Shown here one piece after another: positions 3,358-61,028 of a stretch of 64,000 bases of DNA. The position numbers were made by a program, and so were the translations under genes. Source of the stretch: a virus; IMG/VR virus record IMGVR_UViG_3300045988_061744, positions 107,235 through 171,234 of that record; one strand, given 5' to 3'. The notes below the pieces were generated by a model. That model worked only from the letters and a program-made list of their open reading frames with translations, was not told the origin of the DNA and did not search any database. The first letter of the stretch is position 1. The number at the start of each line of letters is the position of its first letter.

Positions 3358-3590
3358 TTTCTACAATTTTAAAACCGTTATTAATTAAATATTCTTCTGG
3401 AGCAAACTGTAATTCGAAAAATCTATGCAATGAATAGTTTTTTCTCTTTACAGAGATTAAATTTTTCTTTTTAAGTGTAATAGGTTTATCAGAAGCATAA
3501 TACTTCTCTTCCATAAGGGCTGCTCCCCATCCCCACATTTGATAGACCGAACTACAGTAGATAAACTTGTCATGTGTATATACAATCTGT

Positions 3591-4064
3591 TTATCCTTCT
3601 CGTAAGTCTTCCGTAAGATCGTCATAAAATACTTGAATAGTTCTAAAGATAAACTTATTCTTTGCTGAATTGTAACATTCATTCCAGCTACAATTTTTAT
3701 AGTGGTCCAGAATTTCAGAAGCTCTTACATTATAATATATATTTCTGCAAAAGCTTTCGTCCTCATCACATTCAGCAGAATTTATTGTATAATTTCCGAT
3801 GCCAATAGCGTAATGATAGTGACTTTCATAAATTTCACTAAATCTATCTTCTAACTCATAATCTTCGTATATTATTACTCTAAACTTGAATTTGTCCTTA
3901 CTAAGAAGTTTTGCCAGGCAATATGCTACATAGCAACACCCTCCAGTATTAATATCGTACTCTTCATCTAGAAACCTACAAAGTTTATTCAGCCTCTCCG
4001 CTAGAATTTCTTGTACTTCCGTAGATTTGGAGTTCAATCTCCTTCTTTTCTTTTTTAAACTCAT
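3591..4064 (-). CDS. hypothetical protein
   Basis: 157-aa ORF. Confidence 0.4.
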   Translation of the reverse strand: MSLKKKRRRLNSKSTEVQEILAERLNKLCRFLDEEYDINTGGCCYVAYCLAKLLSKDKFKFRVIIYEDYELEDRFSEIYESHYHYAIGIGNYTINSAECDEDESFCRNIYYNVRASEILDHYKNCSWNECYNSAKNKFIFRTIQVFYDDLTEDLREG

Positions 4065-4287: not shown

Positions 4288-4302
4288 CTCTTTTTTAAAT
4301 TA

Positions 4303-5109
4303 CTATCCGCATACATCTATCATTGTTAAATTATTATTACTAGGCTTATATCCGTAATCACAATATGAATTAGTTATTATAACATGATCAAAATTGTTAC
4401 ACAACTTTACCAAGCCTTCGATATTTACAGCATGACAAACTATAATCTCGAATTTAGAGTCTGGATATCTCTCTTTAAGAACTTTAAGCTCCCCAAGGAA
4501 TGTTCCCCCAGCATCACACAAATCATCAATAAAAGTAAAGGTCGGATAATAACAATTAACCTCTCTTCCAATGGAAAACTCCTTAATCTTACCAGTCTCC
4601 AAATCTCTCACCTTATTGAACACAATATGTCCCCAATTATTAGAGAGATTTTTGTACCTTTTGTAAGCTCCAGCATCTGGGAATACAATATTAGTTTGGG
4701 TGGCAAGATTATGTTTAAATTCAAGCGCTTCGCATCTATCCCCTAGAAGTTGTTCTGTTCTATCAGAGTGAGGTTCCAAAACCGTAACATAACGATAATT
4801 CATAGTGTTTAAAATACTGCAAACTATTTTCAGAGAAAATGGGCGGTTAAAGTCCATTACTCTATCCATACGCATAGACATTAGATAGGTAATAAACAAA
4901 TCCCACTCAATCTCTTGTCTATCAAGAATGTCTCCGACCTGAGTTAGAATAAATAACTCTTCAGCAGAAGTAATTCTGCATATAACCTTTACTGAATCTT
5001 TCCTATCAAATTCGTCAGGAAAACTTATCTGAGGTTCTCCGTCAGGAAATCTAGTGAGGTTATACTTAATCTCACTCTTGTCCAAGTTAATTAAGTTTAA
5101 TAATTTCAT
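4303..5109 (-). CDS. prs: ribose-phosphate pyrophosphokinase (PRPP synthetase)-like
   Basis: PRTase-type motifs: N-terminal RFPDGE...VKVICRI and phosphoribosyl-binding-like FIDDLCDAGGT. It sits next to the NAMPT-like gene. Confidence 0.65.
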   Translation of the reverse strand: MKLLNLINLDKSEIKYNLTRFPDGEPQISFPDEFDRKDSVKVICRITSAEELFILTQVGDILDRQEIEWDLFITYLMSMRMDRVMDFNRPFSLKIVCSILNTMNYRYVTVLEPHSDRTEQLLGDRCEALEFKHNLATQTNIVFPDAGAYKRYKNLSNNWGHIVFNKVRDLETGKIKEFSIGREVNCYYPTFTFIDDLCDAGGTFLGELKVLKERYPDSKFEIIVCHAVNIEGLVKLCNNFDHVIITNSYCDYGYKPSNNNLTMIDVCG

Positions 5110-5575
5110 CTACAACATATTTTAAAATTTCGTAACTTTCTTCTAAGCCTGCTCTATCATCTAATAGGATGTTGTAATAAGGCTTGTAAGATTTAGGTAA
5201 TACAGAGCTTTGATTTATTTGTAGCTCTCCATCCGGAGCTAATCCAAGCATATCATATACTATGGTAGACTTTCTATGTGATTCACTAATATCTTCATCA
5301 CAAGTAAATAATACCAGTTCAAATCCTAGTCTAGCACATCTTTTTAGCAGCTCAATAACACAACTATAGTCTCCTCCATCATTATGGTAGTCAAAAATAG
5401 TGTTGTCATAATCGAAAGCGACTATTAGCTTTCCGTATTTTTTATACTCTTCTAATAGTCGCTTCTTGCAAGCTTCTTTTCCGAACGGATGGTTAAAATT
5501 TTCCATAAAGCCCTTCGTTAATCCGCTGTCTGATTTCTTTGAGAGTGTGTTCCTTCTTAAGAACACCGTCTTCAA
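5087..5575 (-). CDS. HAD-family phosphatase-like protein
   Basis: DxDxT motif (VAFDYDNTIFD) near the N-terminus. Confidence 0.45.
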   Translation of the reverse strand: MKTVFLRRNTLSKKSDSGLTKGFMENFNHPFGKEACKKRLLEEYKKYGKLIVAFDYDNTIFDYHNDGGDYSCVIELLKRCARLGFELVLFTCDEDISESHRKSTIVYDMLGLAPDGELQINQSSVLPKSYKPYYNILLDDRAGLEESYEILKYVVDEIIKLN

Positions 5576-6707
5576 ATACAGTTTCTAGACAACCTCCATC
5601 CTCTACTTCAGGAGTTACTTGGTCTTCAGCATAGTAGACACCATTGACATCCTGATATACTGCAATCAGACCTTTCAAAGAGTTCTTAGTTCCATCATCA
5701 GTCTTAGGATGTTTGAATATTTCTTTCAATTCTCCATTAATTACACAAGCAGTAGCCTTAATTGCAAATCCTAAGCTATCTCTACTTGCATACTGATATG
5801 AAAATGAACCTACTCCTAGAACAAGATTGCAAGCTGCCATATGAGCGTTCTCAAGTCGCATATAGATTTGTTTCTGACGTTCTAGTGTAATAGAATCGCC
5901 ATATAACAAGCCTATTTTTGTACTAGGATAACGATAATCCCTAGAAGTAGTATTCCATCCAAAAATCTTACCAAGCATATAATAAGCACCATAGTATTGA
6001 CCTTCTGAAACTTCTACATACTCAGCATCATCGTTAAATGGAGCATAGCAACAATAATATTTACCCTCTTTCATCCTAGTATGGAAATGAGGATTAGTTC
6101 TCAGCCCACAAATAATATCAACGGGGTCTCCGCTATCTGGACGAATAACTACACGTCCATCACGAGCCATAATATCCTTCTTTAATTTGGGAAGGAAGTT
6201 TTCAATAACATTCCAGAAGTCCCAAGTATCAGAAACTATAGAAACGAACCCAGATGGATACAATTCATTAATTAATCGCTTAAAGGTTTGAAGTTCGTCC
6301 TCTTCTCCACCAGCACACATTACAGAATGTTCTGTAGCTGGAACAGTAGCAGCAATTAATTCATTGTCAGAATTTGCACCATAATATTCTTCTAGAGCAG
6401 CAATAGCTGGAATGGTCTCACTTCCAACAAACGAAGTCATATGTGCCATACCAGAAATGATAGCAGCCTCTAAACCAGCCATTCCTCTCATAGAGAAGTC
6501 ATGACACAAGAAATCCAGATTTACATCTTCTGGAAATCCAGTATGTACTGCGTGTCTTTTAAGTTCCTTCTTATAGAGTCTTGCTCTAGTAGCAGAAGTG
6601 CAAGGCATCCACAGAGTACAACTAATTAAAGTCTCTAAATAATTAGTTAACCAGAAGAACTCTGACTTTGTATTAGTAATAGTCATCACAGGAACCCTAA
6701 TAGGCAT
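5493..6707 (-). pseudogene. nadV: nicotinamide phosphoribosyltransferase (NAMPT/NadV)-like, C-terminal 404-aa portion in a different frame from its N-terminal part
   Basis: Strong NAMPT-like sequence (FFWLTNYLETL..., ...VSIVSDTWDFWN..., RPDSGDP). Its N-terminal ~120 aa are encoded by ORF 6686..7054 in another frame. Confidence 0.6.
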
Positions 6708-10190: not shown

Positions 10191-10318
10191 AATTAAATTA
10201 GTTAAATTATAGACTATAATATCTAAATAATTTGTTCTTTCGACTTAGTGTAGTCAATGTGTATGATGTTGACATTGTTCTAGAGGCAATATTCGTTTAC
10301 CAAAATATCTCGCTCTTT

Positions 10319-10915
10319 CTAATGTTCAAAATCAAATTTAATAAGATTACCATGTTTAAAGAAAGGTATTTCCTTAAAATGTTGTATGCCGTCATACTCT
10401 ATAAAAGTGTCACCAATCTTAAAGTCAATAAATGCAAATCTTCCATTTTTAAGAGGTATTCTAACTTGCTTCTGATATTCAATCCCATTATCTTCTAACC
10501 ATGATTGTATAAATAATTCTCCTAAAGATTTGGGTTTGCACATAGGGCATCCGGATTGTCGAAGAAAATCTCCCGGTCTAATCACAAAATCCCCATGGAT
10601 AGGACATCCTATTATAACTTTAGAATCATTATTAATATAAATTGTCTTAGAATAATCGAAATTTTTATCAGGAAAGGTTTCCTAGGCTTTCTAAATGAAC
10701 TTTTCCGTATTCCAGGCTTTGTTAGTCCCGCTTTTTATAGAATTAGCCCATATACCTTTCAAGAGATTGCTAGCAACTACCTCCACTTCTCCAAGTATCT
10801 TGGATATAACTATTACTGACTACCTACTGCCTCTATAAATACTCTTACTAAAATCGCAATCCGGATAAAGAGTCTATACCCTTCTTAAAAATTCTTCCTA
10901 AGTTAATTTCTTCAT
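10319..10915 (-). CDS. endonuclease-like protein (Zn-ribbon GCPxC plus a DUF559/PD-(D/E)XK-like C-terminus); amber-recoded (6 in-frame TAG)
   Basis: With TAG read as Gln, ORF 10319..10585 extends upstream to an ATG at 10913-10915, giving MKKLTQEEFLRRVQTLYPDCDFSKSIYRGS...GCPIHGDFVIRPGDFLRQSGCPMCKPKSLGE...IEYDGIQHF. The ORF track shows only the part after the last TAG. Confidence 0.55.
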
Positions 10916-10932
10916 GCTATTATGCTTTTATA

Positions 10933-11367
10933 CTAGTCCCACCAAGTTCTCATACGTTCAAACTTAAGTTTATTGTACAAGTACCAGGCTTTTTCTCTTC
11001 TTAGATAATCTTTGAGAATTGGGGCATTCCAATTAAGGTCAGCAGCTTTAGGACAGAATCGCTTCCAGTTCTTAATGTTTATGTGTCTATCCACGAATCC
11101 TTCAGACCCAGGTCTGAAATCACAATGATAGGCAGAATCTATCTCTAGAACAATATCTAAAAGTTCTAGTGCGAGTTTTAGATTCTTTTCAACAACTTCA
11201 TTACCTTCAGCAATCCTAGATACTTTGAAGTATTCATACATTCTAATTAAAGCTTGTTTCTCTAGGGAGAGAACAAAACCATAATCAAACGGATAGAACT
11301 TCATAGCCTCTTTAATGAGTCTCTTGTTTTTGTTCTTTCTTAGTTTCATATTCTTGACTTGCTTCAA
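10933..11367 (-). CDS. hypothetical protein
   Basis: 144-aa ORF. Confidence 0.4.
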   Translation of the reverse strand: MKQVKNMKLRKNKNKRLIKEAMKFYPFDYGFVLSLEKQALIRMYEYFKVSRIAEGNEVVEKNLKLALELLDIVLEIDSAYHCDFRPGSEGFVDRHINIKNWKRFCPKAADLNWNAPILKDYLRREKAWYLYNKLKFERMRTWWD

Positions 11368-21178: not shown

Positions 21179-21204
21179 ATCGGTTGAGCTATAGCCCTGT
21201 CATG

Positions 21205-21757
21205 TGGACCTAACGGGAGTCGAACCCGTGTCCAAACAACCCTTATTACAAGGATAACGTGCGTCTCATTTTTATTACATCAGCTAGTGAGTTCTAGCAT
21301 TTAGATAGTTTTACTAGATTTACTCTAAACTACACTATCGAGTTTTAGAAACTGGTTTACAAACCACCAAACTGGGCTGACCGAAGTCAACTCTCCACCA
21401 CCTACTTTTTAACGCTAAAATAGGAAAACGAGTGTTTGTGGTGAGTCAACCACGCAGGCACACATCCCTTCTGTTTAAAGACAACGGAGATTCAGTCTTA
21501 CTAACTCTTAGAGTGTTCTGATTAAAGATATACCACGGATTACCGTCCGCACGCCATTAGCGATATACCTAACCTCTTCTGTTTCTAGGTCTCTCCAGTA
21601 ACCCGACTTGATTAATAGTGTCTATTAATAAGCCAGCAGCTTAGGCTGCCATTCTTACAGGTGCAATTTCTGCAGTTATTTGTTTTTCGTCGTTTAAAGA
21701 GATTGCGCTCTACACGTCCTTATAATTTGTAATCGCCTGTCAAATCCAAGTAGGCCC
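21205..21757 (-). ncRNA. ssrA: tmRNA (ssrA)-like RNA
   Basis: The 3' end TTTGGACACGGGTTCGACTCCCGTTAGGTCCACA closely parallels the E. coli tmRNA 3' end, including the GGAC that precedes the T arm. The 5' end GGGCCTA pairs with TAGGTCC and gives a G3:U70 wobble (alanine identity). The 5' region CTTGGATTTGACAGG resembles ATTCTGGATTCGACGGG. There is a candidate tag ORF ...AACGACGAAAAACAA...GCAGCCTAA. No ORF of 60 aa or more across 20960-21870. Confidence 0.5.
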
Positions 21758-23467: not shown

Positions 23468-23540
23468 TGGACACGCAGGGACTCGAACCCTATCTTCCGG
23501 TGTGCAAAACCAGCGCTCTAGCCATTTGAGCTAACGGCCC
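23468..23540 (-). tRNA. tRNA-Ala(TGC)-like (acceptor stem pairs imperfectly)
   Basis: D arm GCTCAAATGGCTAGAGC, anticodon arm CTGGT-TTTGCAC-ACCGG, T arm AGGGTTCGAGTCCCT. Only 4 bp of the acceptor stem pair, though G3:U70 is present. Confidence 0.4.
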
Positions 23541-24403: not shown

Positions 24404-24485
24404 TTCCGATTAAAGGATTTGAACCCCTGACCTCCCACCAATGCCTTATAGTTGTGGGTGCTCTAACCAACTGAGCTAAATCGGA
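24404..24485 (-). tRNA. tRNA-like with an expanded 15-nt anticodon loop (AACTATAAGGCATTG)
   Basis: Perfect 7-bp acceptor TCCGATT/AATCGGA, canonical D arm GCTCAGTTGGTTAGAGC and T arm, but the anticodon stem CCCAC/GTGGG encloses 15 nt. Confidence 0.35.
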
Positions 24486-27438: not shown

Positions 27439-27588
27439 CTATAATTGAATAAAAAATCTTACATATTAACTGGGTTCTGGTAAATATTCCCACTTATATT
27501 TATATGCGGTAACACTCTTGTGCTTACAGCATTGAGTTATTTTACTACTAGCTTGCTCGGAATTAGTAGCCTTACATACTCCAATATC

Positions 27589-28110
27589 CTATAAATGTCT
27601 TATAGCGTCCTGGGCAGAGAAAAACGTCTGTATATAGTTTCCAGCCAAATCATATTGTGCTATCAATTTACAGTTAGATTTGCGCAACTTACAATTATGC
27701 GACTTTAATACTTTATATATAGTACTTTTACAGCATCCTATCTTGCGTTCAATCTGGTCACTAGTATATCCTAAATTAGCTAACTGAATAATTTCTTTAT
27801 AATCATAGAGAATAGTGCCATCTCCTCCTTTAGAGGCATTGTACCCATTAGAACCATAAGTTCCTAGCTCTTTTATCCAATAGATTTCTCTTTCAGATAG
27901 AAGATTCTCATCTTTAACTTGTTCTAATTCCTCTATTATAAAGTTTTCAATACCATACTTATTCATAGCATCGTATAAAGGACGCCTCCCACATCTTTCT
28001 TTCTGAGAATCTTTACAGTGCTCTTGAAACCGCTCCTAAATGGACTATGTAGTCTTTCCTACATAGCGTTTGTTATTAATTAAATTTGTAATACAATAAA
28101 TATAACTCAT
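27589..28110 (-). mobile_element. GIY-YIG homing endonuclease; amber-recoded (2 in-frame TAG in the catalytic domain)
   Basis: With TAG read as Gln the ORF extends to an ATG at 28108-28110: MSYIYCITNLINNKRYVGKTTQSIQERFQEHCKDSQKE...EREIYWIKELGTYGSNGYNAS. This aligns motif for motif with I-TevI (GIY...YVG...R..H...E..W...GYN). Confidence 0.6.
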
Positions 28111-28189
28111 AATTTTATTAGTTTATTAATATTTGTAGTAATTTGCGTTACCCAGAACTAACCACGTGGAGGTTTACTACTTTAGTTCC

Positions 28190-28271
28190 TAGGGTAGGAG
28201 GGACTCGAACCCTCACGCCTTGCGGCACATGGGCCTAAACCATGCCTGTCTACCAATTCCAGCACTACCCC
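28190..28271 (-). tRNA. tRNA-Leu(TAG), class II
   Basis: Acceptor GGGGTAG/CTACCCT, loop TTTAGGC, long variable arm. Confidence 0.5.
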
Positions 28272-28280
28272 TTGCTCTAG

Positions 28281-28718
28281 TTAATTGTTATTATAATTGT
28301 GAAGTTGCATATGACAGTTAGAGCAAACTATCATTAGATTATCCAACTTATTATTATAATGGTTATTATCCTTGTGATGTAATTCTAAAGGAATTTTCAT
28401 TCCCATCCACTCTGATAATCCACAACGCTCACACTTATCTTCTTTATATCCATCCTCTATTAATCTTATCCTCTTTCTAGAATTAGAAACATTAGGATTT
28501 TCTATCAGGTCTAAAGCATCTTTCCTCTTTGGGTCTAGTCTTTTTCCCTTAGAACCTTGATTCCCCTTATACTCTATTCCCATCTTAATATAATAGGATT
28601 TTAAAGTATCAACCTTGCAATTTAGTCTTCTAGCTATTTCAGCATTAGACTCATTTTCTGAAATCCATTGTCGGATTTCCTATTCTCTTTCTAAAATGTC
28701 GATTCTTGCCTTTGCCAT
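28281..28718 (-). mobile_element. HNH endonuclease with N-terminal HTH-like extension; amber-recoded (1 in-frame TAG)
   Basis: HNH motif LELHHKD...MIVCSNCH. With TAG read as Gln the ORF extends to MAKARIDILEREQEIRQWISENESNAEIARRL..., an HTH-like domain. Confidence 0.5.
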
Positions 28719-29721: not shown

Positions 29722-29783
29722 TAGATTAATACATTGTCCTAGGCTGCACCAATCTATACTATCTATCTTCCGATAAACAGATG

Positions 29784-49822: not shown

Positions 49823-50395
49823 ATGGCTAATTAGGAAGAATTACAGAAGGCATTCATGGCATACTTGATACAAGATGCCCAAGCGCAAGGAATACAATTA
49901 CAATCAGAGCAAGATTTATAGGCTTACGCTGAATAGCTTGGAGAAGATGGAATTAAAGCCAAGTATCAGGAATTTATGTAGAAGATGCAAGGCGGAGTTA
50001 TGGCTAGACTTGGAGCTAAACTAGAATACTATAAAAAATTAAAAGGAGTATGCCCAGAAGGAGAGGAACTTGCTTATTTTAAACAGGGAGGAAGAATCTG
50101 CAAAGCTTGCCAAAAAGCATAGAAAGGAACTAAGGTTACTAAGAAAGCTAATGAAGTTGACAAGTTCAAGGCTGGAAGAGCTTAGTATAAAAAGGATATG
50201 AAATCTGCAAAGGATGAAGCATCTAGAGATTCTGTATCCATTAACAAATATAATGACTAGGAGGTCATGGCAAATAAGGGACACAAAGGAAACTTTAAAA
50301 ATGGAAAATGGGTCCCAGATAGAACAAAGTATGCTAAGAAAGATGCTTGTGGTTCTAAAATGAAAGTAAGTAAATGCGGTTCTAAAATGAAATAA
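49823..50395 (+). CDS. hypothetical Zn-ribbon protein, heavily amber-recoded (about 12 TAG)
   Basis: MANQEELQKAFMAYLIQDAQAQGIQLQSEQDLQAYAEQLGEDG...GVCPEGEELAYFKQGGRICKACQKAQKG... Confidence 0.45.
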
Positions 50396-50425
50396 AAAGA
50401 TTAAAGATGTTAATGTTAATGATTG

Positions 50426-50992
50426 ATGAGTATGAATGTATTTAATTATAACACTTTAACTAAATAGTTAGAAATAAATGAACCAGAGCTTCTTCTAGTT
50501 AAAGAGTTTAAGGCTTTGATACAGAGAGATAAATCTGTTGACAAGGAACGAGTAACTAGAGAATTATCTTACATTTATCTAGCTATTGATTGGAAGAGTC
50601 CCTATAGCCAATATTCAGAACATGAAAGACATGATGAAGCTATTAGTGACTCTGGACTATCTGAATCCGAATTTAATGACCCATTATTCAGGGAAGCCTG
50701 TAGAAAATACCGAGCATTGTAGGATTCTAACAAATCAATAAAACTTCTAGAAGCAGCTAAAAGAGCGGCTGACTAGTTTATTGATTATTTTGATACTATA
50801 GTAGATTTAAATGAACGTGATAATAATGGCAAACCCGTCTTTCAAGCTGAAAAGGTAATGAAAGAAATGGCTACTCTTCATAAAGTTCATGAAGAATTAG
50901 TAACACTAGAAGAGCAGGTTAAGAAAGAGCTTACAGAGCAATCTACTGTAAGAGGTGGAGCTACAGACGGCTTTGACCCAGGAGACTTTTAA
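50426..50992 (+). CDS. terminase small subunit-like protein (positional), amber-recoded
   Basis: 188-aa ORF once TAG is read as Gln, immediately upstream of and abutting terminase large subunit. Confidence 0.35.
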
Positions 50993-50994
50993 TT

Positions 50995-53355
50995 ATGCCT
51001 AGAAAGAAAAAAATATTACCTGAAGAAATCTAGAATATAGTAGATTAGGTAAGAGAGAAAGAACAAAAAGAGGATGCCAAAGAAGCTAGAGAACTAGTAT
51101 AGAAGATAAGAGAGGAAAGGGGCAAAAATGCTGATTATTGGGATGTAAAGAGAGGAGATAAGATAGAGGTATTTGACCCTACTTTATCTTATGAAATAAC
51201 TGGATATAGACCAATAGATGAAACACACGGTCTTGACTTCGACCCAGATTGGTTTACTGAGACCAGAGAAGTGTATAGAAAAACTGGGAAGTATTGTCCA
51301 TATCTAAAAGATAGTAAGAGATATAATGAGTTTTGGAAGGAATAGTATAGAAGATGTAAATATGGAATGACTGTTAATGGTTATACAATTACTGGAGATA
51401 ACTATTTCTTCCTAAACTTCTATTAGCTTCCTATCATTGATGATAACAAGGCATCTGGAGAAGGAACAAGTAGTGACTTTCCTATATTTTTCGCATCTCA
51501 TTATATGTTCTTTCATTATCTGTAGATGGCTAGAGTTCTGCATAAGCACGCAGCTCTTATGAAAGCCCGTTCTATTGGATTCTCTGAAATAAATGCATCC
51601 TTATCTGCAAGAATGTATTCAGTAATCAGAAGAAGCAGAGTAATGATTACTTGTTTTAATGATACCTTCCTTAAAGGTACTTTTAGTAAGTTTGATAATG
51701 CTTTAACATTCTTGAATACTTGTACAGGAGGAGGATTCTTCAAACTACGTTTGATTGACCAAGACTTAAGAAAGAAGTCTGGTAAACAGATTAAGGTAAA
51801 CGGACAGTTTGAGGATGTTGGATTTAAATCAGAAGTAGTTGGAATAAACGGAGCTAAGGCATCTAATATTCGTGGAGACCGTGTTGACCTATTAATATAT
51901 GATGAAGCAGGGTCTTGGCCCGGACTAGATACTGCTGTAGTGCAGGGACAAGAGCTTTGTGAAGTTCAGGGTAAACCTCGTGGAACAATGTTATTTGGGG
52001 GTACTGGTGGTGATATGGGTGCTCCATTAGCAGGTCTTAAGAAGATATATTACAATCCAAAAGCTTACAAAGTTCTTCCATTTAGACATAATTATACACA
52101 GGATGGGACTACTATTGAAAGTGGGTTCTTCATTCCATATTTTGTCTAGTCTCTAAATTCAGAATACATGGACCATAGAGGTGTATGTAATACAGTAGAA
52201 TATAAGAAGTATCTATAGGAAGAGCGCGATAATTTATTAGCAGTTCCAGATGATTATCTAAAGAAGTGTGCCGAACGATGTTGGAATGCAGAAGAAGCAT
52301 TTAATCTTGAAGGTGTTAACAAATTCAACAAGATTCTTATTGCGGACCAGTTAGCTAATATAAGACTTAAGAAAATAGGACCAAGACCAGAATCTGGATA
52401 CATAGACTACTTCTATAAAAACAATAAACACACCTAGGATAATATAGATGGTTTTAAATGGATTCCTAATATTAACGGAAAAGTAAAAATACTTGAACAT
52501 CCTGTATGGTCTGATTTGTATAAAGAGTAGATGGATAAACTTAGATAGGAAGCTGAAGAAAGGGGAGAAGAATTTGAATCTCCAGCGTACAAAGAAATGC
52601 ATGATTTATATGTTGCAGGAATAGACGGTATTGATATAGGAGCTAGTCAAACTTCGAAAGAAACAAGAGATCCTTCTGATTTCTGTATAACTATAAAAAG
52701 AAGAGCATTTGGTCTAAACGAACCGTAGTATGTTGCTATGTATAAAGACAGACCTAATGACATTAGAGAAGCCTATAAAATAGCTATGTGTTTAGCTAGA
52801 TACTATAATTGTAGAATAAACATAGAAGCTACCCGTGTAGGTATGATTACCTGGGCTAGAGAAAAGGGTTGTTTAAACTACTTTATGAAAAGACCTAGAG
52901 CTACTCTAACAGACGTTAAGAATGGAACTACTAAATAGTACGGAACACCCGCTACCAAAACTATTATAGAACAACATACTGACTTGACAGCAGCCTTTAT
53001 TGAGGATTTCTGTCATACTATATGGTTTGAAGAAATGTTAGACCAATTTACTGGATATAATGATGAGAATAAAGGTAAATTCGATATTGTAGCCGCTGTG
53101 GGAATGACAGAATTGGCAGACTAGGAATTGTCAGGAAGATAGCCAGTGCTTGTTGAAAAAGAAGTTGAACAATTCCAAGATTATGGTTATTATTACGACG
53201 AGAGAGGAATCAAAAGATTTGGGGTTATACCAACTTCTAAGACTTTTGAAACTAACATACAAAAAAATGAATACGATGACCCATACAGAATTGAAACAAG
53301 TGATCCTAGGTTATATGAGAGACTTGTACAAAATGGAATACGTAGGTGGGCTTGA
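50995..53355 (+). CDS. terL: terminase large subunit, amber-recoded (more than 10 TAG)
   Basis: Continuous 786-aa ORF only with TAG read as Gln. N-terminal ATPase region ...GMTVNGYTITGDNYFFLNFYQLPII...FPIFFASHYMFFHYLQ...; ...VDLLIYDEAGSW... (Walker B-like); nuclease domain YVAGIDGIDIGASQ...DPSDFCITIK...IVAAVGMTELADQ. Ends at TGA. Confidence 0.75.
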
Positions 53356-53611
53356 AATTCAGAACCTAGATCCAGTTGGTTATAAGGTATCGTTTAACTT
53401 TGATAGGTCAGAGATGCCTTTAGTCATTATAGCTGATTTACCTGATGAAGAATTTCTCCCATTTATAAAGGAAGAATTAAGAAGTAGGAAGTTACAAAGA
53501 GTTAAATACTATAATGCAACTAAACTTCCTCCAGAACAGCATAATTTATGTTATGAAAGAAAAAGAACTGATAGACAAGACGAACGAGGCTATTGCGGAG
53601 CTTGTATATGA
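53333..53611 (+). CDS. hypothetical protein overlapping the terminase large subunit 3' end
   Basis: 92-aa ORF in another frame with Cys cluster C...CGAC. Confidence 0.25.
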   Translation: MEYVGGLEIQNLDPVGYKVSFNFDRSEMPLVIIADLPDEEFLPFIKEELRSRKLQRVKYYNATKLPPEQHNLCYERKRTDRQDERGYCGACI

Positions 53612-55724
53612 TAAGTACGAATTATAGAAAGCCTATAATTACTATAACGGAAAAAGAGACCCAGAATAGTTTCGTTACCTGGAAGAAAACTTCGGAATAG
53701 GTAGTCCTACTTCTGTAGAATTTACACCACTACTAAAGAAGCACGTAGATGCTCTAGTAGGGGAATATCTAGGAACCCCTATCCTTCCGAAGATTTCTTG
53801 TAAGGATTCAGATACCATTAGTAATATCACTAGAGAAAAATAGTTAGAAATAACTAAAGGGATAGTTAAATTTCTTAGAGACCATTTAAGTAATTCTATT
53901 CTGAAATTTATCGACGGAAAAGATATTACAGATAAAGCCGTGAAGACTTAGTTAGATAAAATTATTCAAGACATTGATTAGTCTTTTATTTCTCAATATG
54001 AGATAGCTGCATAGAATATTATTCATTATATCATGCAGTCTAGAGAAACCGATTTAATAACTAAACTCCGATAGTTACTTACAGATTTATTAATTACTGG
54101 CTATACATTTTTCAGAGTAAAATCATCATCTTCTGGAACTAACATAGAAATAGAAGTTCTGAATCCTTTAAATACTTTCGTAGATAGGAATCCAGAATCT
54201 CCATATGTTAGAAATTCGTATAGAGTTGTGGTTAGAAAATGGATGAGTAAAAGCTAGATATTAGCTAAATACGGAAAAGAAATCTCTAGAGAAGATTTGA
54301 AAAGACTAAAAGATGAATGGAGAGCTGATGATTCAGCTGCAGTTTATAGAAGAGTTTATGGTGACACTTGTACTATAGTAAACGAAGATTAGAATCATGA
54401 AACTATTCCTGGATATCCAGATAATGAATATAGTGCTCATAGATTTTAGTTAATTCCTGTTTATGATGTAGAGTGGATAGAAACTGATGACGATTTTGTA
54501 ATGTAGAGATACAATACCATTAGAATTGGAGAAGAAATATATATTCTGAGAGGTCTAGACAAGACTGTTATGAGGTCGAAAGATAATCCTAATTTCTGCT
54601 CTTTGTCTGTGAATGGGGTATATTTCTTAAATCGTTCCCAACAACCGTACTCTCTGATATTAAAGTGCGCACATCTATAGGATAGATATGACTTGTTAAA
54701 TTATTATAGGGATAACCTGATAGCTAACAGCGGTACTGCTGGAGTAATCATGGATATGTCATTGCTTCCTACTAACCTAGGCGTAAAATGGCCAGAAAGA
54801 GTGTAGAAATGGTTAGCATACAAGAAGGGTGGTATCATGTGGATTGATTCCACTTAGGAGGGAAGAAATGATGGAGCGCAAGCACCTAACTAGATATACA
54901 ATGGATTTGATGATACCTTAAAAGCTTAGGCTGTATAGGCTATTGAATTAGCAATTCAATCAGTAGAACAAACTACATCATCTATAACTGGAGTATTTAG
55001 AGAAAGATTAAATGGAATAGAAACTCACGATGCTGTAACTAATATTAAGCAAGGTGTTACTAACTCTTACATAGTAACCAAGCATTATTTCTAGTAGATG
55101 GACCTAATCACTTGTGAGATATTATTGGATAGTCTAAACTAGGCTAAAATAACATATAAGAAAGGATTGACTGGTACTATTATACTTGGAGATAAATACT
55201 AGCAGATATTTACAGCGCTTCCAGAGTATTTTACGGTTACTGATTATGACATCCATATAACTTCTAGCTCTGAAGTAATGGAAGATTTACAAACTATTAA
55301 AGCTATTATTCCAGAGTTTGTTAAAAGTCAGCAAATGGATCCTGACATCATATTTGAAGCACTAACTGCTAAGAGTCTTACAGACCTTAAATACAAGGTT
55401 AAGAAAGCAGTATAGATTCGTAAAGAAGAAAACAATTAGCTATAGTAGCTATAGGAAAAATTGGAAGAAACTTCACAATAGGCATAGCAGTTACAGCAAG
55501 AACTATAGAAAGCTTAGTAGAAGATAGAAAGTTTGGATGAGTAGAGATTAGGATTAGAATAGCAGAAAATGTAGTTAGAATATAAGGTTAACTGGCTCAA
55601 AGCTCAATCTGATTCTACATATAAAGATAGACAAATGGATATAGAAGAAAAGAGAACTGAAATAGAGTTGGCTTAGCTTCATGATGGAAATCCATATAAT
55701 GACAAAATAAGACAAATACATTAA
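53514..55724 (+). CDS. portal protein, amber-recoded (more than 25 TAG)
   Basis: With TAG read as Gln a continuous ORF of about 735 aa: ...ELVYDKYELQKAYNYYNGKRDPEQFRYLEENFGIGSPTSVEF... with a Gln-rich C-terminal coiled coil LQQLQEKLEETSQQAQQLQQELQKAQQKIESLDEQ. Start could instead be the ATG at 53553. Confidence 0.6.
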
Positions 55725-55725
55725 T

Positions 55726-56460
55726 ATGGCAACTGGAACAATTGTATATAATAAGGATTAGCAATAGATTTATCCTATTTCAGATGGTTCAGTAATTATT
55801 AGTAATGCTTCTGGTTCTAAATCAAATGTGGAAGAAGATTTAAAGAAACTATTTAAATAGGTGTCAGACCTTTCTGGTTCTAGTGAGGCGGTAAATAATA
55901 TTATTATTAAGATTCATTACTTACCTGCTGATACTGCTGAAGAATCTGAGATAAAATTATCTACTAAATAGTGGACTGATACTTTTGAACTTCCAACTGA
56001 AGAGAATCCATACATCTGGAAAAGAACTAAATTTACTTTCTAGGGAGCTGACGAATCTCAGGGAACTACTATTTATGAGATTGTGGCAAGCGATGTTTCT
56101 ACTATTATCTAGAATATATACACTAGAACTGAGGGAATAACTCCAGTTATTGAGTATAAGCAGAAAACAGATGAGGATGGAAATCCTCTATATGTAGATT
56201 CAGAAGGACATGAAACAACGACTGTTACTCCAACTAAGGCATATGACTATAATTATTATTGGAATGGGAAACCAGCTGGTAAATTAAATAGTCTACCACC
56301 GACTCCTGAAGGTTAGTCATATACATGGACAGACTATCCTCAAGATATTAGTTTATCATTTAGTTCAGTTTTTATGTCTAGACGTATACGACAAGAAGGT
56401 AAGTGGAAACCATTTTCTACTCCTGCTCAATATGGTCAATGGCCTACTACTGAGTCTTAA
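55726..56460 (+). CDS. virion-associated hypothetical protein, amber-recoded
   Basis: MATGTIVYNKDQQQIYPISDGSVIISNASGSKSNVEED... Confidence 0.45.
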
Positions 56461-56470
56461 TTATTATAAT

Positions 56471-57199
56471 ATGGAATTTAGTATTGATATACATACCCAG
56501 ATTAACGGGGAAATAACTATTGAAGACTTTTCAAAGGAATATGGATAGTATATTGATGAAGATTTAGAGGTAGTAACTTCCTATGATTCTTATAAGTATA
56601 GTGAAAGTGCTACCCTAAATACTATCATAAAAGTTAGTATAGGAGATGCTACTTTGATAGACGTACTTCTCAATGACCATACAGAGGATTTAGACTCTTG
56701 TACATTTAAGGTGAAAGAAGATGGATATTATGTAGTAGACCACATAATTCTTCCTAATATGAAATGGTATGAAAATTCATCTGATGAATACAAGGAGTAT
56801 TATGAAACTATCTATATAACTGATGGAGAGAAACTATATAAAGAAGTAGATGGAGAGCTAGAGGAATGTACTGTAAAAGAAATCCTTGAGAGAAATATAG
56901 AAGGAACTACTATCAAAAAATGTAAGGTAGATGTATTCTTTACAGGAAATCTGCAATAGTGTTATATTAACTACTGTAAGAAACTCTTTGACTCTTTATT
57001 AAATAAGTGTCTAACTAGAGAACATGATGCAGATATATTTGCAAGAGATTTTATCTGGATGACACTTAATATTATAGATTATTTAATAGGCTTTAAACAA
57101 TTCATGGAAGCTGAAAGATTGTTAGCAATGTTCCGCACTTGCGGTGGATTCTGTGACAATCACCATGAACATAAACGTATAGGTTGTGGATGCTCTTAA
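56471..57199 (+). CDS. hypothetical protein, amber-recoded
   Basis: Track ORF 56654..56959 extends in both directions when TAG is read as Gln. Confidence 0.4.
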
Positions 57200-57354
57200 A
57201 AGAAAGGCTATTAAAAGGTATGAGGATTTCCTTAAAAGGGTTAGAAAGGGATATAGACCAGATTATTAGGATATTTTGAATCTAATTTGTTTTATTAACC
57301 TACCCGTAAAATTAGATAATCACGAATTTATTAAATAGCAATTATTGAATCATA

Positions 57355-58944
57355 ATGATACAGCCTATTTATACTTCGGTAAGCAATGCTGATATAAAGC
57401 CTTGTGGAAAGAAAGGACATTTAATAAAAAGTGAACCTATACCTCTCCTAAGAAACAACTATCTTGGAGAATATAGAACTGAATTAGAAAGAGCTAAGGT
57501 TAGAAAGAATCTAGGTATCGCTGATGAGTAGAGTCTTCTTTGGGGAAATATAGAAGGAACTATAGAAGCCTAGAAAGATTTAGTATAGTACATAGAATAG
57601 AAATGGACTTATACTAGTGATGTTGCAGAGAATATCAATACTGTAAAAGATGCCTTAGATTATGCTTTATTCTTTATAAGTTAGTACAAAGCTAATACAG
57701 AAGAAATAGAGGAAATAAAAGTTGATATAAGTAATATCAGAACTTCTATTACTGTACTTAAGGAAGAACTTGAAGAAGAAATTGAATCTAACAGAACTGG
57801 CATAAACAATCTTTCTGAGAAAATAACCTAGATTAATGAGGCAATAGAGGATATTAATGAGTCTATCAAAAATATAGATGTTGACAAAAACATCTAGAAT
57901 TGGATAACTAATAGTCTAAGAAACTCCAAAACCATAGAAATAAAGGATGATAATACTCTAGAAGTAATTCTATCTTAGTAGGAGGATAATGCAATACATC
58001 TGATTCAGTAGGAAATTCCTCCAGTAGAGGAGGAAGGAGAACCTTCCACAGTAGTTCTACCTGGAATATATGTAAAAGACCTGGAACCATCTCTAACAGA
58101 GGTAAAGGAAGAAGTTAAGGGAGTATAGGAAGCTTAGAAGAACACTGATTCTAAAGTAGATTCTAATACTGAGAATATCACAAATATATAGACAAGTTTA
58201 GAAACTATAGCTACTTATCAAACTGAACTTCCAGATGATACTACTTCTACTGTTATTCAAGGAACTACAGTTGAAAAATTGAAAGGAAAGCCGTTTAATG
58301 AGATTATAGACACTCTATTATTTCCTACTGTTGTTAGAGATTTGGTTTATCCTTAGTTGTATTATAGCTTCACCTCTTAGATTGTGGAGGTAGGATCCGC
58401 TTTACTTACCCCTACTTTAACATTTATAAAAAATGATGCTGGAGAGGAAACTGGTAGAGAAGAAACTATTACCTATAATGATTCTCCTGTAGAATCTGAA
58501 ACATATGATTCTATCGGTGTTTATGTGCATTCTGGTACCGTAAATTATGCTGCTGGAGAATATCTTATTAACAACAAGGGAGAGGTTACAGACAAGAGGG
58601 TGGAGGCTGGTTCAATATCAACTACAGCATAGGTGACTGCTACCTACCCTTGGTATTCTGGTAATACAGATAGTTTAATCAAATAGAGTCTTGTTCCATT
58701 TGGACAATCTTCTGGAATTATTACATTTTCATTAAGTGGAAAGGCTATTATAAAATTACCTGGAAGTAATACTTAGCTAAATTCATTTACAGTAGATGGA
58801 GGACTAGGATACCTAAATGTTGATTTAAGTGGCTGGGAAACTTCTACTGAATAGATAAATGGATTTCCTTATAAAGTATGGACTAAGAAGGATACTTATT
58901 CTTCAGCATTGCCTCATCAAATTAACTTTACTTTATCACAATAA
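57355..58944 (+). CDS. structural/fibre-like protein with coiled coil, amber-recoded (about 20 TAG)
   Basis: About 529 aa with TAG read as Gln; includes track ORF 58384..58632. Confidence 0.45.
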
Positions 58945-60812
58945 TGGCATTTAAATATACAGGTGATGCTACATTAGGCGTTGCTTTAACCGTAGAAACT
59001 CCTAAACCTCTTGATAATAGAACAGTAGTCGATAATTTAGACGAATTATATTCTATTCCGGAGAAATATGCTTATCAAGGCATGACCGTTTCAAATATAG
59101 ATAACGGAAATATTTATATGCTAGTAGATAAGTCTAAGATTAAATACAAAGAAGGTTGGAAAGCTTCTTATGAATCTATTTAGATAATCACCTGTACAGA
59201 GGCTGAATATAAGGAATGGTCTGAAAATACCACAGAAGATTTTAAACCTATAGACGAAAATAAAACATATCTTCATGCAGAAACATATTATTATATATAT
59301 GAAGACAGCCTAGATGATGATTAGTTTTATTTATCAGCAGAATGGGGTAAAAAGATAGAGGAATAGTTGAAATAGAAAGCTCTAAATACTACTGTCGTAC
59401 AGATTAGAACGGATTTAGACTAGACAATCTCTAACCTTTCCAAGTATGCTACTCTTGAAGAGTTAACTGAGAATTATGCCCCTAAAACTGATCTAGATTT
59501 AGAGGACCCAGAATCCTTGTTATCTAAAGCCTTATCTAACCATTATACTAAGGAAGAAACTGATGACATATTTGTTACCAAAGAAAGTCTTAGAGGAGAA
59601 GGAATGGAAGGAGATGATTTTGTCTTTGTTACAAAGAAATAGTATGACGAAGACCAATAGGCTATTCAAGATGAGCTAGATAAGACTTTAAAGGTAGATG
59701 GAGATGGTTCCCTAGAAAGTATTACTGTAGGATAGATAAAGTCTCCAGTAGTAGAAGGGAAGGATTAGCTAGTAGTAGATGTTAAATCTGATGGATTGTT
59801 TGTTGGAGAAGACCAATTCGCCATGATGTCAGATGTTCCTAATCTGGTTACATTAACTGAAGAGGAATATTTAAAACTGGTAGAAGATGAGGCTATAGAA
59901 CCTGACACATATTACTATGTGTATGATGTAACAAATGATGCTAAAGTCTATATTACTAAGGAGTACTTAGATCAAAATTACCATACTACACATCAGTATT
60001 AGTCCTGGGTTGCTACTAATTATTACTCAAAGACATAGATTGATGAAATTGTTTCTGGTTTATAGAAACTAGGAAGCTACGTTACTACAGAAGATATTAA
60101 AGCATACTACACTAGCTCGTAGGTAGATGAAAAGTTTCTTACAAAAGAAAATGCTCAATCTACATACGCCACTCAATAGTCATTAACCGACCTTTCCGAT
60201 TAGATAGCAGAGGAGTATGTGACAAAAGAAAGTTTAAGAGGAGATTCTCCCGAAACTGGTGATGACGATTTTATATTTGTTACCTAGAAGAAATATTAGG
60301 AAGATTAGGATGCCGCTTCTAAGGAATTTAGCACAGAGCTTCTAAAATCAACCTCTATAGAAACTTCTGATATTACTATTTAGAAAATTGTCGAAAAAGA
60401 AGTACAATAGGGAACAACTGGAGAAAGTTCAGAAGATGAAACAACTGAACAGACTATTGAAAGTTCTGTTAAACTTACTACAGAAGACAATAGATTATTA
60501 GCATCTGGAAAGCAAGTTGCTCTTACAGAAGAGGTTCCTAAATTGGTATGTCTTCCACAAACAGATTATGATGACTTAGTTGAAAATAATAAGACAGAGA
60601 ACGATACGTACTATTGTACTTATGGAGAAAAAGATATATAGGATACAGGATATGTCAGAAGTGAATATCTGACAGAACGCTACTATACAAAAGCTGAGGT
60701 GGAAGAATTAATAAAGGCTGCTGTAGACGAATTGTAGAAGAAAATAGATGCAATATAGCCTGGTTCTGGTAACGTACAGGTAGATGGAGAAAATGAACAA
60801 TTAATATTTTAA
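58944..60812 (+). CDS. tail fibre-like protein with internal tandem module repeat, amber-recoded
   Basis: About 622 aa; the repeated module VTKESLRGEGMEGDDFVFVTKKQYDEDQ / VTKESLRGDSPETGDDDFIFVTQKKYQEDQ. Confidence 0.45.
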
Positions 60813-60817
60813 ATAGT

Positions 60818-61027
60818 ATGGGAACAATTTGGGTTGAAGGGTAGTTTAAGAACTCAGCAAAACCAGTAAAAGTTGTTGGAGGAAATATAGGAGGATCTGG
60901 AATAGACCCAGATACATTAAAGAACTACGCTACCAAGGCTGAACTGTAGAAAGCTGTTGAAGACTTAACTGCCTCCATAGAAGGAATAGATCATAATGTA
61001 GAAGAAGAAACTTTAATAATACAATAA
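60818..61027 (+). CDS. small protein, amber-recoded
   Basis: MGTIWVEGQFKNSAKPVKVVGGNIGGSGIDPDTLKNYATKAELQKAVEDL... Confidence 0.3.
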
Positions 61028-61028
61028 T

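Follow-up and report, generated by a model that had tools for sequence, protein, structure and literature searches.

TAG-bearing homing endonuclease genes within a standard-code block of a recoded gut phage

Four free-standing homing endonuclease genes in the window (the 64,000-nucleotide stretch of phage DNA analysed here) carry TAG in frame inside a block whose other genes are written in the standard code. Together they hold 15 TAGs in 724 codons compared with none in the 10,304 codons of their neighbours (Fisher p=1.6e-18), and this pattern of TAG-bearing endonucleases holds up and is shared widely within the phage group. We consider it probable, taking the explanation as a whole, that these are homing endonucleases whose full-length products depend on suppression of TAG and whose output is delayed or scaled down. 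That the genes are functional, mobile, and dependent on suppression is very likely. That the TAGs are maintained because expression is thereby delayed or limited is a credible idea to which we give slightly less than an even chance.

The source of the window is a gut phage of ~187 kb that is distantly crAss-like. The features discussed below are collected in Table 1.

Table 1. Positions of the features in the window
Feature	Position	Strand	Details
GIY-YIG homing endonuclease gene, free-standing	27466..28110	-	214 codons; TAA stop; 3 TAGs: 28045-28047 (codon 22), 28036-28038 (codon 25), 27589-27591
HNH1, HNH endonuclease gene, free-standing	28281..28718	-	145 codons; N-terminal HTH; single TAG 28680-28682 (codon 13), at the beginning of the HTH module
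HNH2, HNH gene, free-standing	37436..37822	-	128 codons; N-terminal zinc ribbon; between tRNA-Arg and tRNA-Lys; TAGs 37814-37816 (codon 3), 37754-37756 (codon 23)
I-Bth0305I/Vsr-like (PD-(D/E)XK superfamily) homing-endonuclease-like gene, free-standing	10202..10915	-	237 codons; 9 TAGs (codons 6, 14, 32, 75, 78, 199, 212, 231, 234)
Accessory gene, function not assigned (exception)	40439..41629	-	396 codons; six in-frame TAGs; within variable cassette 39963-42405
Inserted segment with GIY-YIG gene	27455..28189		Directly 3' of tRNA-Leu; missing from most relatives
tRNA-Leu (anticodon UAG)	28190..28271	-	Between GIY-YIG and HNH1 genes; ARAGORN; Rfam 51.6 bits
Suppressor tRNA (anticodon CUA)	43081..43151	-	Upstream end of minus-strand block; ARAGORN and Rfam
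Suppressor tRNA (anticodon CUA)	45551..45623	+	Head of plus-strand block; ARAGORN
Late structural block (terminase, portal, tail genes)	49823..62849	+	TAG=sense dialect; comparison reference

Coding dialects of the window

The terms early and late are used here as labels inferred from gene content alone. The phage decodes TAG as an amino acid in its late genes, with Gln as the most likely residue. The nine late genes contain 119 TAGs in 4,156 codons (28.6 per 1000 codons), none of them ends in TAG, and PHROG matches to terminase, portal, and tail proteins emerge in the late block with TAG read as Q. The other minus-strand genes (n=65, tiled) have no TAG in frame and two of them use it as a stop. 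In the tRNA-rich accessory block TAG is excluded as a sense codon and hardly ever serves as a stop. Expressed as a share of Gln-type codons, TAG makes up 55% in the late genes, 39% in the endonuclease genes (~41% when pooled over endonuclease lineages), and 0% in neighbouring genes. The census over endonuclease lineages was confined to coding regions supported by homology, and N-terminal run-ons through tRNA genes were left out.

A preliminary description of this DNA proposed that the mobile genes share the coding dialect of the late genes and that large housekeeping or accessory early genes lack TAG. The first proposal is in line with the TAG shares given above but does not extend to three HNH lineages in close relatives that have no TAG (0/6, 0/2, and 0/4 Gln codons), so gating by suppression is not obligatory. 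The second is correct for 65 genes and fails for the accessory gene listed in Table 1.

Two suppressor tRNA genes are present in the window. The one on the minus strand has the acceptor end U1...A72. The best match of the other among the 27 tRNAs in the window is tRNA-Gln(UUG) at 30393-30465 (71% identity). When the GIY-YIG lineages are compared, the codons found most often opposite TAG are CAG and CAA, but they account for just 9/42; Gln is therefore supported, short of proven, as the residue inserted. The suppressor tRNA genes head two divergent blocks, so suppression might start early and any delay would then shrink. Genome length in this clade is 186-193 kb, with about 28 tRNAs and a tmRNA, and the terminase is 26-29% identical to those of the Crassvirales, a distant relationship.

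Reading frames and domains across the TAG codons

The GIY-YIG gene was originally placed at 27589-28110 with two TAGs in its catalytic region. Both TAGs are there, but the end was misplaced: position 27589 belongs to a third TAG. The translation from 28110 to 27589 reads MSYIYCITNLINNKRYVGKTT*SI*ERFQEH..., and beyond the third TAG the frame stays open for 41 more codons as far as TAA at 27466. These extra codons are kept in homologues (...YKWEYLPEPS), are included in the match to PHROG 314 'homing endonuclease' (residues 1-209), and lie inside the segment that is missing from endonuclease-free relatives, which argues that they are real coding sequence. The I-Bth0305I/Vsr-like gene had likewise been given as 10319-10915 with six TAGs. 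It is endonuclease-like and rich in TAG as claimed, but the count of six combined five internal TAGs with a terminal one at 10319, and the gene is longer and has nine. In both cases the ends were wrong because TAG had been taken as a stop at the 3' end yet as sense inside the gene.

Pfam GIY-YIG (PF01541) matches residues 1-91 of the GIY-YIG protein over the full model (E=1.2e-11), and TIGR01453 'group I intron endonuclease' matches with 76.9 bits (cutoff 56). The N-terminal 93 residues align with residues 3-92 of I-TevI (PDB 1MK0, E=4e-10), and in the 1MK0/1LN0 alignment the two proteins share the GIY Tyr, the YVG Tyr, Arg, His, Glu (RE), and Asn (GYN). TAG codons 22 and 25 come after the YVG motif and before the conserved Arg and His, so the set of catalytic residues is complete only if both are translated. 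It had been claimed that the alignment with I-TevI depends on reading these codons as Gln. The alignment itself is sound, but the two TAGs are opposite Lys and Glu in I-TevI; in sister lineage D both face CAA Gln codons. In the C-terminal part, where I-TevI/Seg-type enzymes have a distinct DNA-binding region, there are matches to NUMOD1 at residues 150-173 (22.5 bits versus a cutoff of 22.8) and, also under the cutoff, to HTH_7 at residues 103-136. Public protein sets include a full-length TAG=Q translation of this gene (P0001, 99% identical).

The description of HNH1 as having one TAG within an N-terminal HTH is borne out by a Pfam GerE/HTH_38 match at residues 10-43 (GerE E=1.6e-5, above cutoff), which includes codon 13. 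The Pfam HNH match at residues 96-141 is slightly below the cutoff (19.8 versus 21.4 bits), the protein has the pattern CxxC...HH...N...CxxCH, and PHROG 10822 covers residues 12-143 (E=7e-21). HNH2 is a fourth endonuclease gene that the preliminary description did not include. It matches Pfam HNH_3 (27.0 bits, cutoff 24.8), the DUF2116 treble clef of Pfam at residues 2-32, and PHROG 1271 at residues 2-120. The product of the third gene has an I-Bth0305I/Vsr-like nuclease fold in which the acidic and His residues of the catalytic site are conserved. Structure predictions were made on database homologues of the TAG->Q proteins.

If the TAGs were genuine stops, the products would be ORFs that begin at internal Met codons at 27589-27966 (125 aa), 28281-28583 (100 aa), and 37436-37696 (86 aa), and the sequence upstream of each would be non-coding. 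In both HNH genes this longest standard-code ORF still holds the whole HNH core, so a truncated HNH nuclease is possible. By contrast, the 125-aa GIY-YIG fragment is without both Tyr motifs and the Arg. Moreover, the N-terminal extensions, whose lack of conserved motifs had been named as grounds for doubt, carry the catalytic GIY/YVG/Arg/His half, the HTH, and the zinc ribbon; domains and family profiles continue across the TAG positions; where these genes have TAG, sister lineages have a sense codon, and their own TAGs are at other sites; and the inserted segments fit the long ORFs rather than the short ones. We also calculated the probability that the region outside the longest standard-code ORF is free of TAA and TGA by chance. 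This was 6e-4 for the GIY-YIG gene, 0.024 for HNH1, 0.031 for HNH2, and 1e-6 for the third gene. With these results, the idea that the TAGs end translation is very improbable.

It is even more improbable that the genes are decaying pseudogenes, late in the life cycle of homing endonucleases, with TAGs as inactivating nonsense mutations. Decay does occur in this family, with a split GIY-YIG gene (L014), a fusion (L016), a split PDDEXK_5 gene (L048), and a copy of the I-Bth-like gene that has a frameshift (P0121). In the window, however, TAG accounts for all 15 interruptions of the 724 codons, TAA, TGA, and frameshifts being absent, and out of frame the same genes contain 86 TAA, 45 TAG, and 33 TGA. 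The dN/dS of the GIY-YIG gene is 0.16-0.23 relative to sister lineages. The phage has genes for two amber suppressors, and 119 TAGs are read as sense in its late genes. Identical proteins are found in genomes whose flanks are ~80% identical, as with HNH1 (100% identical among such relatives), which points to recent spread. The endonuclease genes have moved recently, their frames are intact, and purifying selection acts on them (dN/dS about 0.2).

Insertion and spread among relatives

Presence and absence were scored in about 100 related contigs. All four endonuclease genes are precisely present or absent at fixed sites among syntenic relatives, in agreement with the original view that they are mobile. 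Most of these sites are spacers between tRNA genes, and two of the four genes abut tRNA genes. In five relatives without the GIY-YIG segment (L001, L012, L016, L019, L020), window position 28190 is joined to 27454 through 4 nt; L022, L024, and L035 have the segment. Identity to L022 and L024 is 98.5% over a 2.3-kb tract containing both the GIY-YIG and HNH1 genes and ~80% in the adjacent sequence. HNH1 and the tRNA-Leu are both missing from seven relatives (L018, L025, L027, L028, L031, L032, L034). Among ~30 close relatives HNH2 occurs only in L046, L053, L060, and L090; L040 and L069 have an unoccupied site. The insertion point of the I-Bth-like gene coincides exactly with the stop codon of the gene upstream of it. 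A correspondence between its 3' end and locus L155 was coincidental; the gene at L155 is a different one (RNase H-like). In the Arg-Lys-Pro-Tyr tRNA array of relatives, differing spacers carry HNH, PDDEXK_5, or GIY-YIG genes, or none.

An intron- or intein-like context had been suggested as something to look for, and there is none in the window. Each of the four lies between other genes and has its own start and stop codon. At Rfam gathering scores the window contains no group I or II intron, and a permissive search found none in the split tRNA-Met of relative L020.

To survey TAG use without bias, we analysed 111 related loci (1.24 Mb). The bona fide TAG-bearing families on this strand are the endonucleases and one gene without known function. 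The contrast between endonucleases and their neighbours is repeated in seven more distant contigs (L166, L169, L174-L176, L184, L196). A broader survey of GIY-YIG genes was restricted to lineages with at least two internal TAGs, since many single TAGs are ordinary stops.

These distributions bear on a neutral account in which TAG-recoded phages pass endonuclease genes among themselves and the TAGs reflect ancestry and relaxed constraint rather than a means of timing. CAG-to-TAG changes would not be purged, in contrast to genes required before the onset of suppression, because the endonucleases matter only in rare co-infections. We regard this as possible but unlikely to be the explanation. It fits the abundance of the GIY-YIG family in large gut-phage contigs, the TAG-free endonuclease lineages within the same clade, and the scattered look of the TAG positions, which differ among lineages (the TAGs of four GIY-YIG lineages are in different alignment columns). 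A TAG share in the endonucleases that is lower than in the late genes is also expected of drift toward equilibrium. However, 39961-40446 and 41759-42094 of the variable cassette and the NAD-salvage genes are dispensable, variably present members of the same block with no TAG, so dispensability alone does not bring TAGs. Neutral sharing is also at odds with the strong purifying selection on these proteins and with where the TAGs lie. As a hint of selection, TAG comes first among the Gln-type codons in 7/8 lineages (P=0.013; rank test P=0.005). This N-terminal bias was discovered post hoc and was weakly replicated in eight further GIY-YIG lineages (P=0.09, P=0.32), a result that neutral sharing would accommodate. 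In the combined set TAG precedes the other Gln-type codons in 12/16 lineages, compared with 7.4 expected (P=0.017; rank P=0.002).

Proposed expression timing and known systems

The explanation we favour, suppression-dependent expression, would work as follows. The four genes have invaded intergenic spacers of a TAG-poor block, where they are co-oriented with standard-code neighbours. Each has one to nine in-frame TAGs, so full-length enzyme is possible only with decoding by suppressor tRNA(CUA). Under standard decoding, ribosomes would be predicted to halt after 21 codons in the GIY-YIG gene, 12 in HNH1, 2 in HNH2, and 5 in the third gene, and these early halts would fall before or within the catalytic or DNA-targeting modules. 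Output of the endonucleases would thus be tied to the code switch of the phage. It would be delayed and scaled down, with each TAG multiplying it by roughly the suppression efficiency. Cutting would then be confined to a stage with many genome copies and recombination functions.

A more specific and tentative version, which we think less likely to be right than wrong by a clear distance, is a code lock in which 5' ambers are positively selected so that the code switch sets the timing and the number of TAGs sets the amount. Mobile elements would gain TAGs after landing in standard-code operons and would need no RNA structure or promoter of their own. Equally tentatively, the HNH genes may give two products, with an untargeted core made under the standard code from the internal Met and then, after the switch, the full targeting enzyme. 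No Shine-Dalgarno sequence was found upstream of endonuclease, late, or early genes, nor was a shared motif seen by eye.

These observations indicate that stop recoding in phages is more than a split between an early and a late block, with selfish genes that cut DNA using the suppressor-dependent dialect within a dual-code block. Standard-code annotation truncates or splits such genes and hides very active endonuclease traffic through phage tRNA arrays; in the preliminary description, TAGs had set a start or an end of all three genes. If gating is adaptive, TAGs would provide a simple sequence signature of genes that a recoded phage must not express early. With one to nine TAGs each, the genes are natural test constructs for the onset and efficiency of phage amber suppression.

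The genes and their phage have likenesses to known systems. I-Bth0305I (PDB 3R3P), a Vsr-like enzyme of a Bacillus phage, is 13% identical to the product of the third gene and is intron-encoded, whereas the gene here is free-standing with nine TAGs. SegB of T4 (PMC2330249) is, like the present GIY-YIG gene, a free-standing GIY-YIG gene between phage tRNA genes, variably present among relatives and co-inherited with flanking markers. For SegB, which uses the standard code, cleavage sites and homing were demonstrated experimentally; the homing role of the TAG-bearing gene is predicted from sequence. The code-15 (TAG->Gln) crAss-like phages resemble this phage in having suppressor tRNA(CUA) genes, structural genes rich in TAG, and an early part free of it. 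Their recoding has metaproteomic validation (PMC9523058), and what links the present phage to the Crassvirales is the similarity of its terminase.

Delayed endonuclease expression is known from T4. According to a review (PMC2988022), I-TevI, I-TevII, I-TevIII, SegB, and MobE of Aeh1 are genes of early or middle units whose translation is held until late, and in T4 an RNA hairpin hides the ribosome-binding site on early transcripts and a late promoter is used. Control in both cases would act after transcription, but the block proposed here is amber termination relieved by a suppressor tRNA; in the upstream regions that we examined, neither a hairpin nor a late promoter was identified at these endonuclease genes, and there was no Shine-Dalgarno sequence. 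If adaptive, gating by TAG would be a second, independent answer to the problem that T4 solves by RNA hairpins.

The closest parallel is in the 'Agate' phages, which reassign TGA to Trp. According to Borges et al. (bioRxiv 10.1101/2021.08.26.457843), a group I intron endonuclease is recoded within standard-code early territory, and in-frame stops are proposed to hold back the endonuclease until late infection. In both systems an endonuclease gene is preferentially written with the reassigned stop inside standard-code territory. The Agate case involves one intron-encoded family and TGA; ours involves TAG, probably read as Gln, and free-standing genes of four nuclease families (five with relatives), located mostly in spacers between tRNA genes, in many lineages of the clade and in distant contigs, and with documented TAG-free exceptions. 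The logic of a suppression-gated endonuclease was thus already proposed by Borges et al., and the present case adds another example.

The phage and its two coding blocks

The window has a G+C content of 35.6% and contains two blocks of opposite orientation. On the minus strand, positions 1 to about 44,700 are almost completely tiled by standard-code ORFs and hold 26 tRNA genes, a tmRNA, NAD-salvage genes, an ATPase, lipoproteins and numerous small genes. On the plus strand, the terminase, portal and tail genes from 49,823 onward can be read only with TAG as a sense codon; the portal gene has 35 TAGs in 736 codons. Two suppressor tRNA genes lie between the blocks, and the plus-strand one is closest to the phage's own tRNA-Gln(UUG) (71% identity). 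The terminase is 26–29% identical to Crassvirales terminases and the close relatives are viral contigs of 186–193 kb from the human gut. On these features, the phage is large and distantly crAss-like, and amber is reassigned in its late genes. The literature, including PMC9523058, already covers this situation well.

Features of the window discussed in this section
Feature	Position	Strand	TAGs	Residues that standard decoding would give	Remarks
PRPP synthetase-like (ribose-phosphate pyrophosphokinase-like) gene	4303-5109	-			NAD-salvage pair 4303-6707
Nicotinamide phosphoribosyltransferase	5493-6707	-			PHROG 448, E=1e-137
Third endonuclease gene, I-Bth0305I/Vsr-like	10202-10915	-	9	5	
tmRNA	21202-21757	-			Rfam, 74 bits; in tRNA-rich block
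tRNA	23468-23540	-			Rfam, 39.5 bits; no ARAGORN call
tRNA	24404-24485	-			Rfam, 53 bits; no ARAGORN call
GIY-YIG gene	27466-28110	-	3	21	
HNH1	28281-28718	-	1	12	
HNH2	37436-37822	-	2	2	
396-codon gene	40439-41629	-	6		Not a recognisable endonuclease
Pistol self-cleaving ribozyme	41691-41759	-			63 bits; gathering score 34.5
tRNA, anticodon CUA (suppressor)	43081-43151	-			Between blocks, at head of minus-strand block
RAGATH-14 RNA	43181-43374	-			181 bits; gathering score 149
tRNA, anticodon CUA (suppressor)	45551-45623	+			Between blocks, at head of plus-strand block

The minus-strand suppressor tRNA is immediately preceded by the RAGATH-14 RNA, which may have a role in the processing or control of this tRNA; the pairing is kept in a related locus (L041, 3346–3539, beside a tRNA at 3569–3638). 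Parts of the tmRNA are 96–99% identical in relative L002. The NAD-salvage pair lies within the TAG-free block. In a related faecal phage contig (GenBank MT835539.1, 29955–34319), the homologue of the 2.4-kb terminase gene is matched as three pieces over 4.3 kb, which suggests that the gene is interrupted by an intron, intein or insertion.

TAG codons and boundaries of the endonuclease genes

It had been proposed in the preliminary description that endonuclease genes of the early block are recoded and their early neighbours are not, and the counts bear this out. Across the remaining 65 tiled genes of the block there are 0 TAGs in 10,304 codons, as compared with 15 in 724 codons for the four endonuclease genes (Fisher's test, p=1.6e-18); nine late genes have 119 in 4,156. 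Of the Gln-type codons (TAG+CAA+CAG), TAG accounts for 39% in endonuclease genes, 55% in the late genes and 0% in the neighbours. Out-of-frame stop triplets in the endonuclease genes number 86 TAA, 45 TAG and 33 TGA, with TAA the most frequent, and in frame only TAG occurs. The probability of finding no TAA or TGA by chance in the stretches outside the longest standard-code ORFs ranges from 0.03 down to 1e-6. As a stop, TAG is used by 2/65 genes of the block; one case is a TAG-TAA tandem and the other arose when an endonuclease gene inserted. The tandem (4300–4305, minus strand) ends the PRPP synthetase-like gene, and relatives have no TAG at this gene end.

All endonuclease genes of this finding are on the minus strand. 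Read from 28110, the GIY-YIG gene starts MSYIYCITNLINNKRYVGKTT-TAG-SI-TAG-ERFQEH. With TAG read as Gln, it matches the full Pfam GIY-YIG model (E=1.2e-11) and scores above the cutoff for TIGR01453 ('group I intron endonuclease'). Against the solved catalytic domain of I-TevI, residues 2–93 align at E=4e-10, and the catalytic Tyr, Tyr, Arg, His, Glu and Asn are all in place. The TAGs earlier noted in its catalytic region stand, but the 3' end had been set at 27589, and 27589–27591 proves to be a third TAG, beyond which the frame runs on for 41 codons, up to a TAA at 27466. This tail is kept in homologues, falls within the coverage of PHROG 314 and is inside the mobile insert. HNH1 has a single TAG, as described before, at codon 13, in the first part of an HTH that scores above the Pfam cutoff. 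The third gene does carry TAGs, but its supposed end at 10319 is another of them, and there are nine from 10915 to 10202 rather than six. Pfam, NCBIfam and PDB sequence searches gave no match for it; the whole protein is covered by PHROGs 559, 9084 and 7140 (HNH, homing, intron-encoded nuclease). HNH2, which had not been listed, has an N-terminal zinc ribbon and TAGs at codons 3 and 23.

Mobility and distribution in relatives

A comparison of 34 + 80 + 49 related loci gave exact presence or absence for each of the four genes. The GIY-YIG insert (27455–28189) is present in L022, L024 and L035 and absent from L001, L012, L016, L019 and L020, where tRNA-Leu is followed by 4 nt and then by the equivalent of 27454. 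The HNH1 protein is 100% identical in genomes with neighbouring sequence that is about 80% identical, and L022 and L024 share, at 98.5% identity, the 2.3-kb tract with the GIY-YIG and HNH1 genes, a pattern that fits recent transfer with co-conversion of flanks. The third-gene insert (about 10210–10927), with eight bases common to both junctions, is absent from 47/47 relatives. Where the insert is missing, the upstream gene finishes in TWWD-TAA (L117, 3982–3989). Where it is present, an insert-supplied TAG replaces this TAA (10928–10933 and 10202–10215, compared with L117), and six codons further on an in-frame TGA shares bases with the endonuclease ATG (GCATGA); the upstream protein would gain six residues under suppression. 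HNH2 was found in four relatives only. In an Arg-Lys-Pro-Tyr tRNA array, some genomes have HNH2 in the Arg-Lys spacer; others have a PDDEXK_5 endonuclease (Pfam E=2e-23) in the Lys-Pro spacer or a GIY-YIG gene in the Pro-Tyr spacer, or are empty.

The four GIY-YIG lineages of the clade have 3, 6, 3 and 4 TAGs in mostly different columns. Among 42 codons that stand opposite a TAG of another of these lineages, Gln codons form the largest group (6 CAG, 3 CAA), and both TAGs in the catalytic half of the window gene face CAA in sister lineage D. The dN/dS between GIY-YIG lineages is 0.16–0.23. Decayed copies occur elsewhere (a split gene in L014, a fusion in L016, a frameshift in P0121, a homologue of the third gene) and look quite unlike the window genes. 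The latter appear to be working mobile genes and not wrecks, and very probably they are functional, mobile and suppression-dependent.

Other arrangements were seen in relatives. Two different GIY-YIG lineages stand in tandem between tRNA genes in L002 (3387–4970) and L012 (9003–10754), and L013 has a chimera, with its N-terminus from one and its C-terminus from the other, which indicates recombination between endonuclease genes. In L020 (3212–3992), and also in L015, L025, L030 and L033, the homologue of tRNA-Met 29783–29858 is interrupted immediately 5' of its anticodon loop. The interruption is about 705 bp long and carries a TAG-free HNH gene along with a weak tRNA-like element; even at a permissive threshold, a search of the L020 copy gave no group I intron.

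For the wider survey, the equivalent strand in 111 close-relative loci (1.24 Mb) was tiled with TAG-as-sense ORFs, and all TAG-containing ORFs were clustered. Most clusters were rejected as artefacts, being spurious N-terminal extensions or having a TAG a few codons before the end. The real families are GIY-YIG, PDDEXK_5, several HNH lineages and a 396-aa protein also encoded in the window. In a census of homology-supported coding regions, about 14 endonuclease lineages have 1–9 TAGs. Because three HNH lineages have none (0/6, 0/2 and 0/4 Gln codons), the rule is strong but not absolute. On a 180-kb contig from outside the clade, a GIY-YIG gene of 66% identity carries 2 TAGs, with 10/11 neighbours lacking TAG, and on a 165-kb contig a 55%-identical I-Bth-like gene has 3. 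The GIY-YIG genes of L174–L176, L184 and L196 (41–58% identity) have 3–5 TAGs and TAG-free neighbours. Still more distant homologues, presumably in standard-code phages, have none. The 396-codon gene lies in a variable cassette (39963–42405) present in three relatives only, directly downstream of the pistol ribozyme. If it encoded a toxin, it would suit the idea that dangerous proteins are placed behind the code switch.

Suppression, expression and known systems

Full-length translation of all four genes needs TAG decoding, for which the genome supplies two tRNA(CUA) genes. The endonuclease genes run in one direction with the TAG-free genes and tRNAs among which they are closely packed, so co-transcription with these is probable. 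Translation of the endonucleases would nevertheless depend on suppressor activity, and production would be delayed and damped, more strongly with more TAGs. Some observations weigh against a strict timing device: the clade includes TAG-free HNH lineages, suppressor tRNA genes stand at the heads of both blocks, and the internal-Met ORFs of HNH1 and HNH2 still encode the nuclease core.

Dispensability alone does not explain the TAGs, because other dispensable or variable genes of the block are TAG-free. TAG tends to be the first Gln-type codon (all four window genes, 7/8 clade lineages; P=0.013), a trend spotted post hoc after data inspection, and a rank permutation on clade lineages supports 5' placement (P=0.005). 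Eight further GIY-YIG lineages from other contigs gave a weak trend of the same sign (P=0.32 and P=0.09), and pooling gave P=0.017 and P=0.002, the lineages being partly non-independent. Late genes (49823–62849, plus strand) also mildly prefer TAG at earlier Gln-type codons (permutation P=0.03), so the bias may characterise recoded genes as a whole rather than endonucleases in particular. A tentative reading, to which we give slightly less than an even chance, is that the TAGs are kept for the delay or limit that they put on expression.

The endonuclease families are known and the phage is of a known recoded kind. Published work has also already proposed, for one family, that recoded stops restrain a homing endonuclease. 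The present analysis extends the pattern to four to five families of free-standing nuclease genes in a clade that recodes amber, and finds endonucleases to be nearly the sole gene class in the suppressor-dependent dialect within a dual-compatible block. It also corrects gene boundaries, identifies a fourth gene and gives a weak hint of TAG placement toward the 5' end. Overall this is a solid yet unsurprising extension of a known pattern. In a passage on Agate phages, Borges et al. (10.1101/2021.08.26.457843) propose the same logic for a TGA-recoded endonuclease encoded by an intron that lies in an early gene. The T4-type endonucleases I-TevI, I-TevII, I-TevIII, SegB and MobE, as portrayed in part of PMC2988022, have hairpins over the ribosome-binding site that block translation on early/middle transcripts, with the same outcome as that proposed for the window genes. 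T4 SegB is likewise a GIY-YIG enzyme in a tRNA cluster (PMC2330249).
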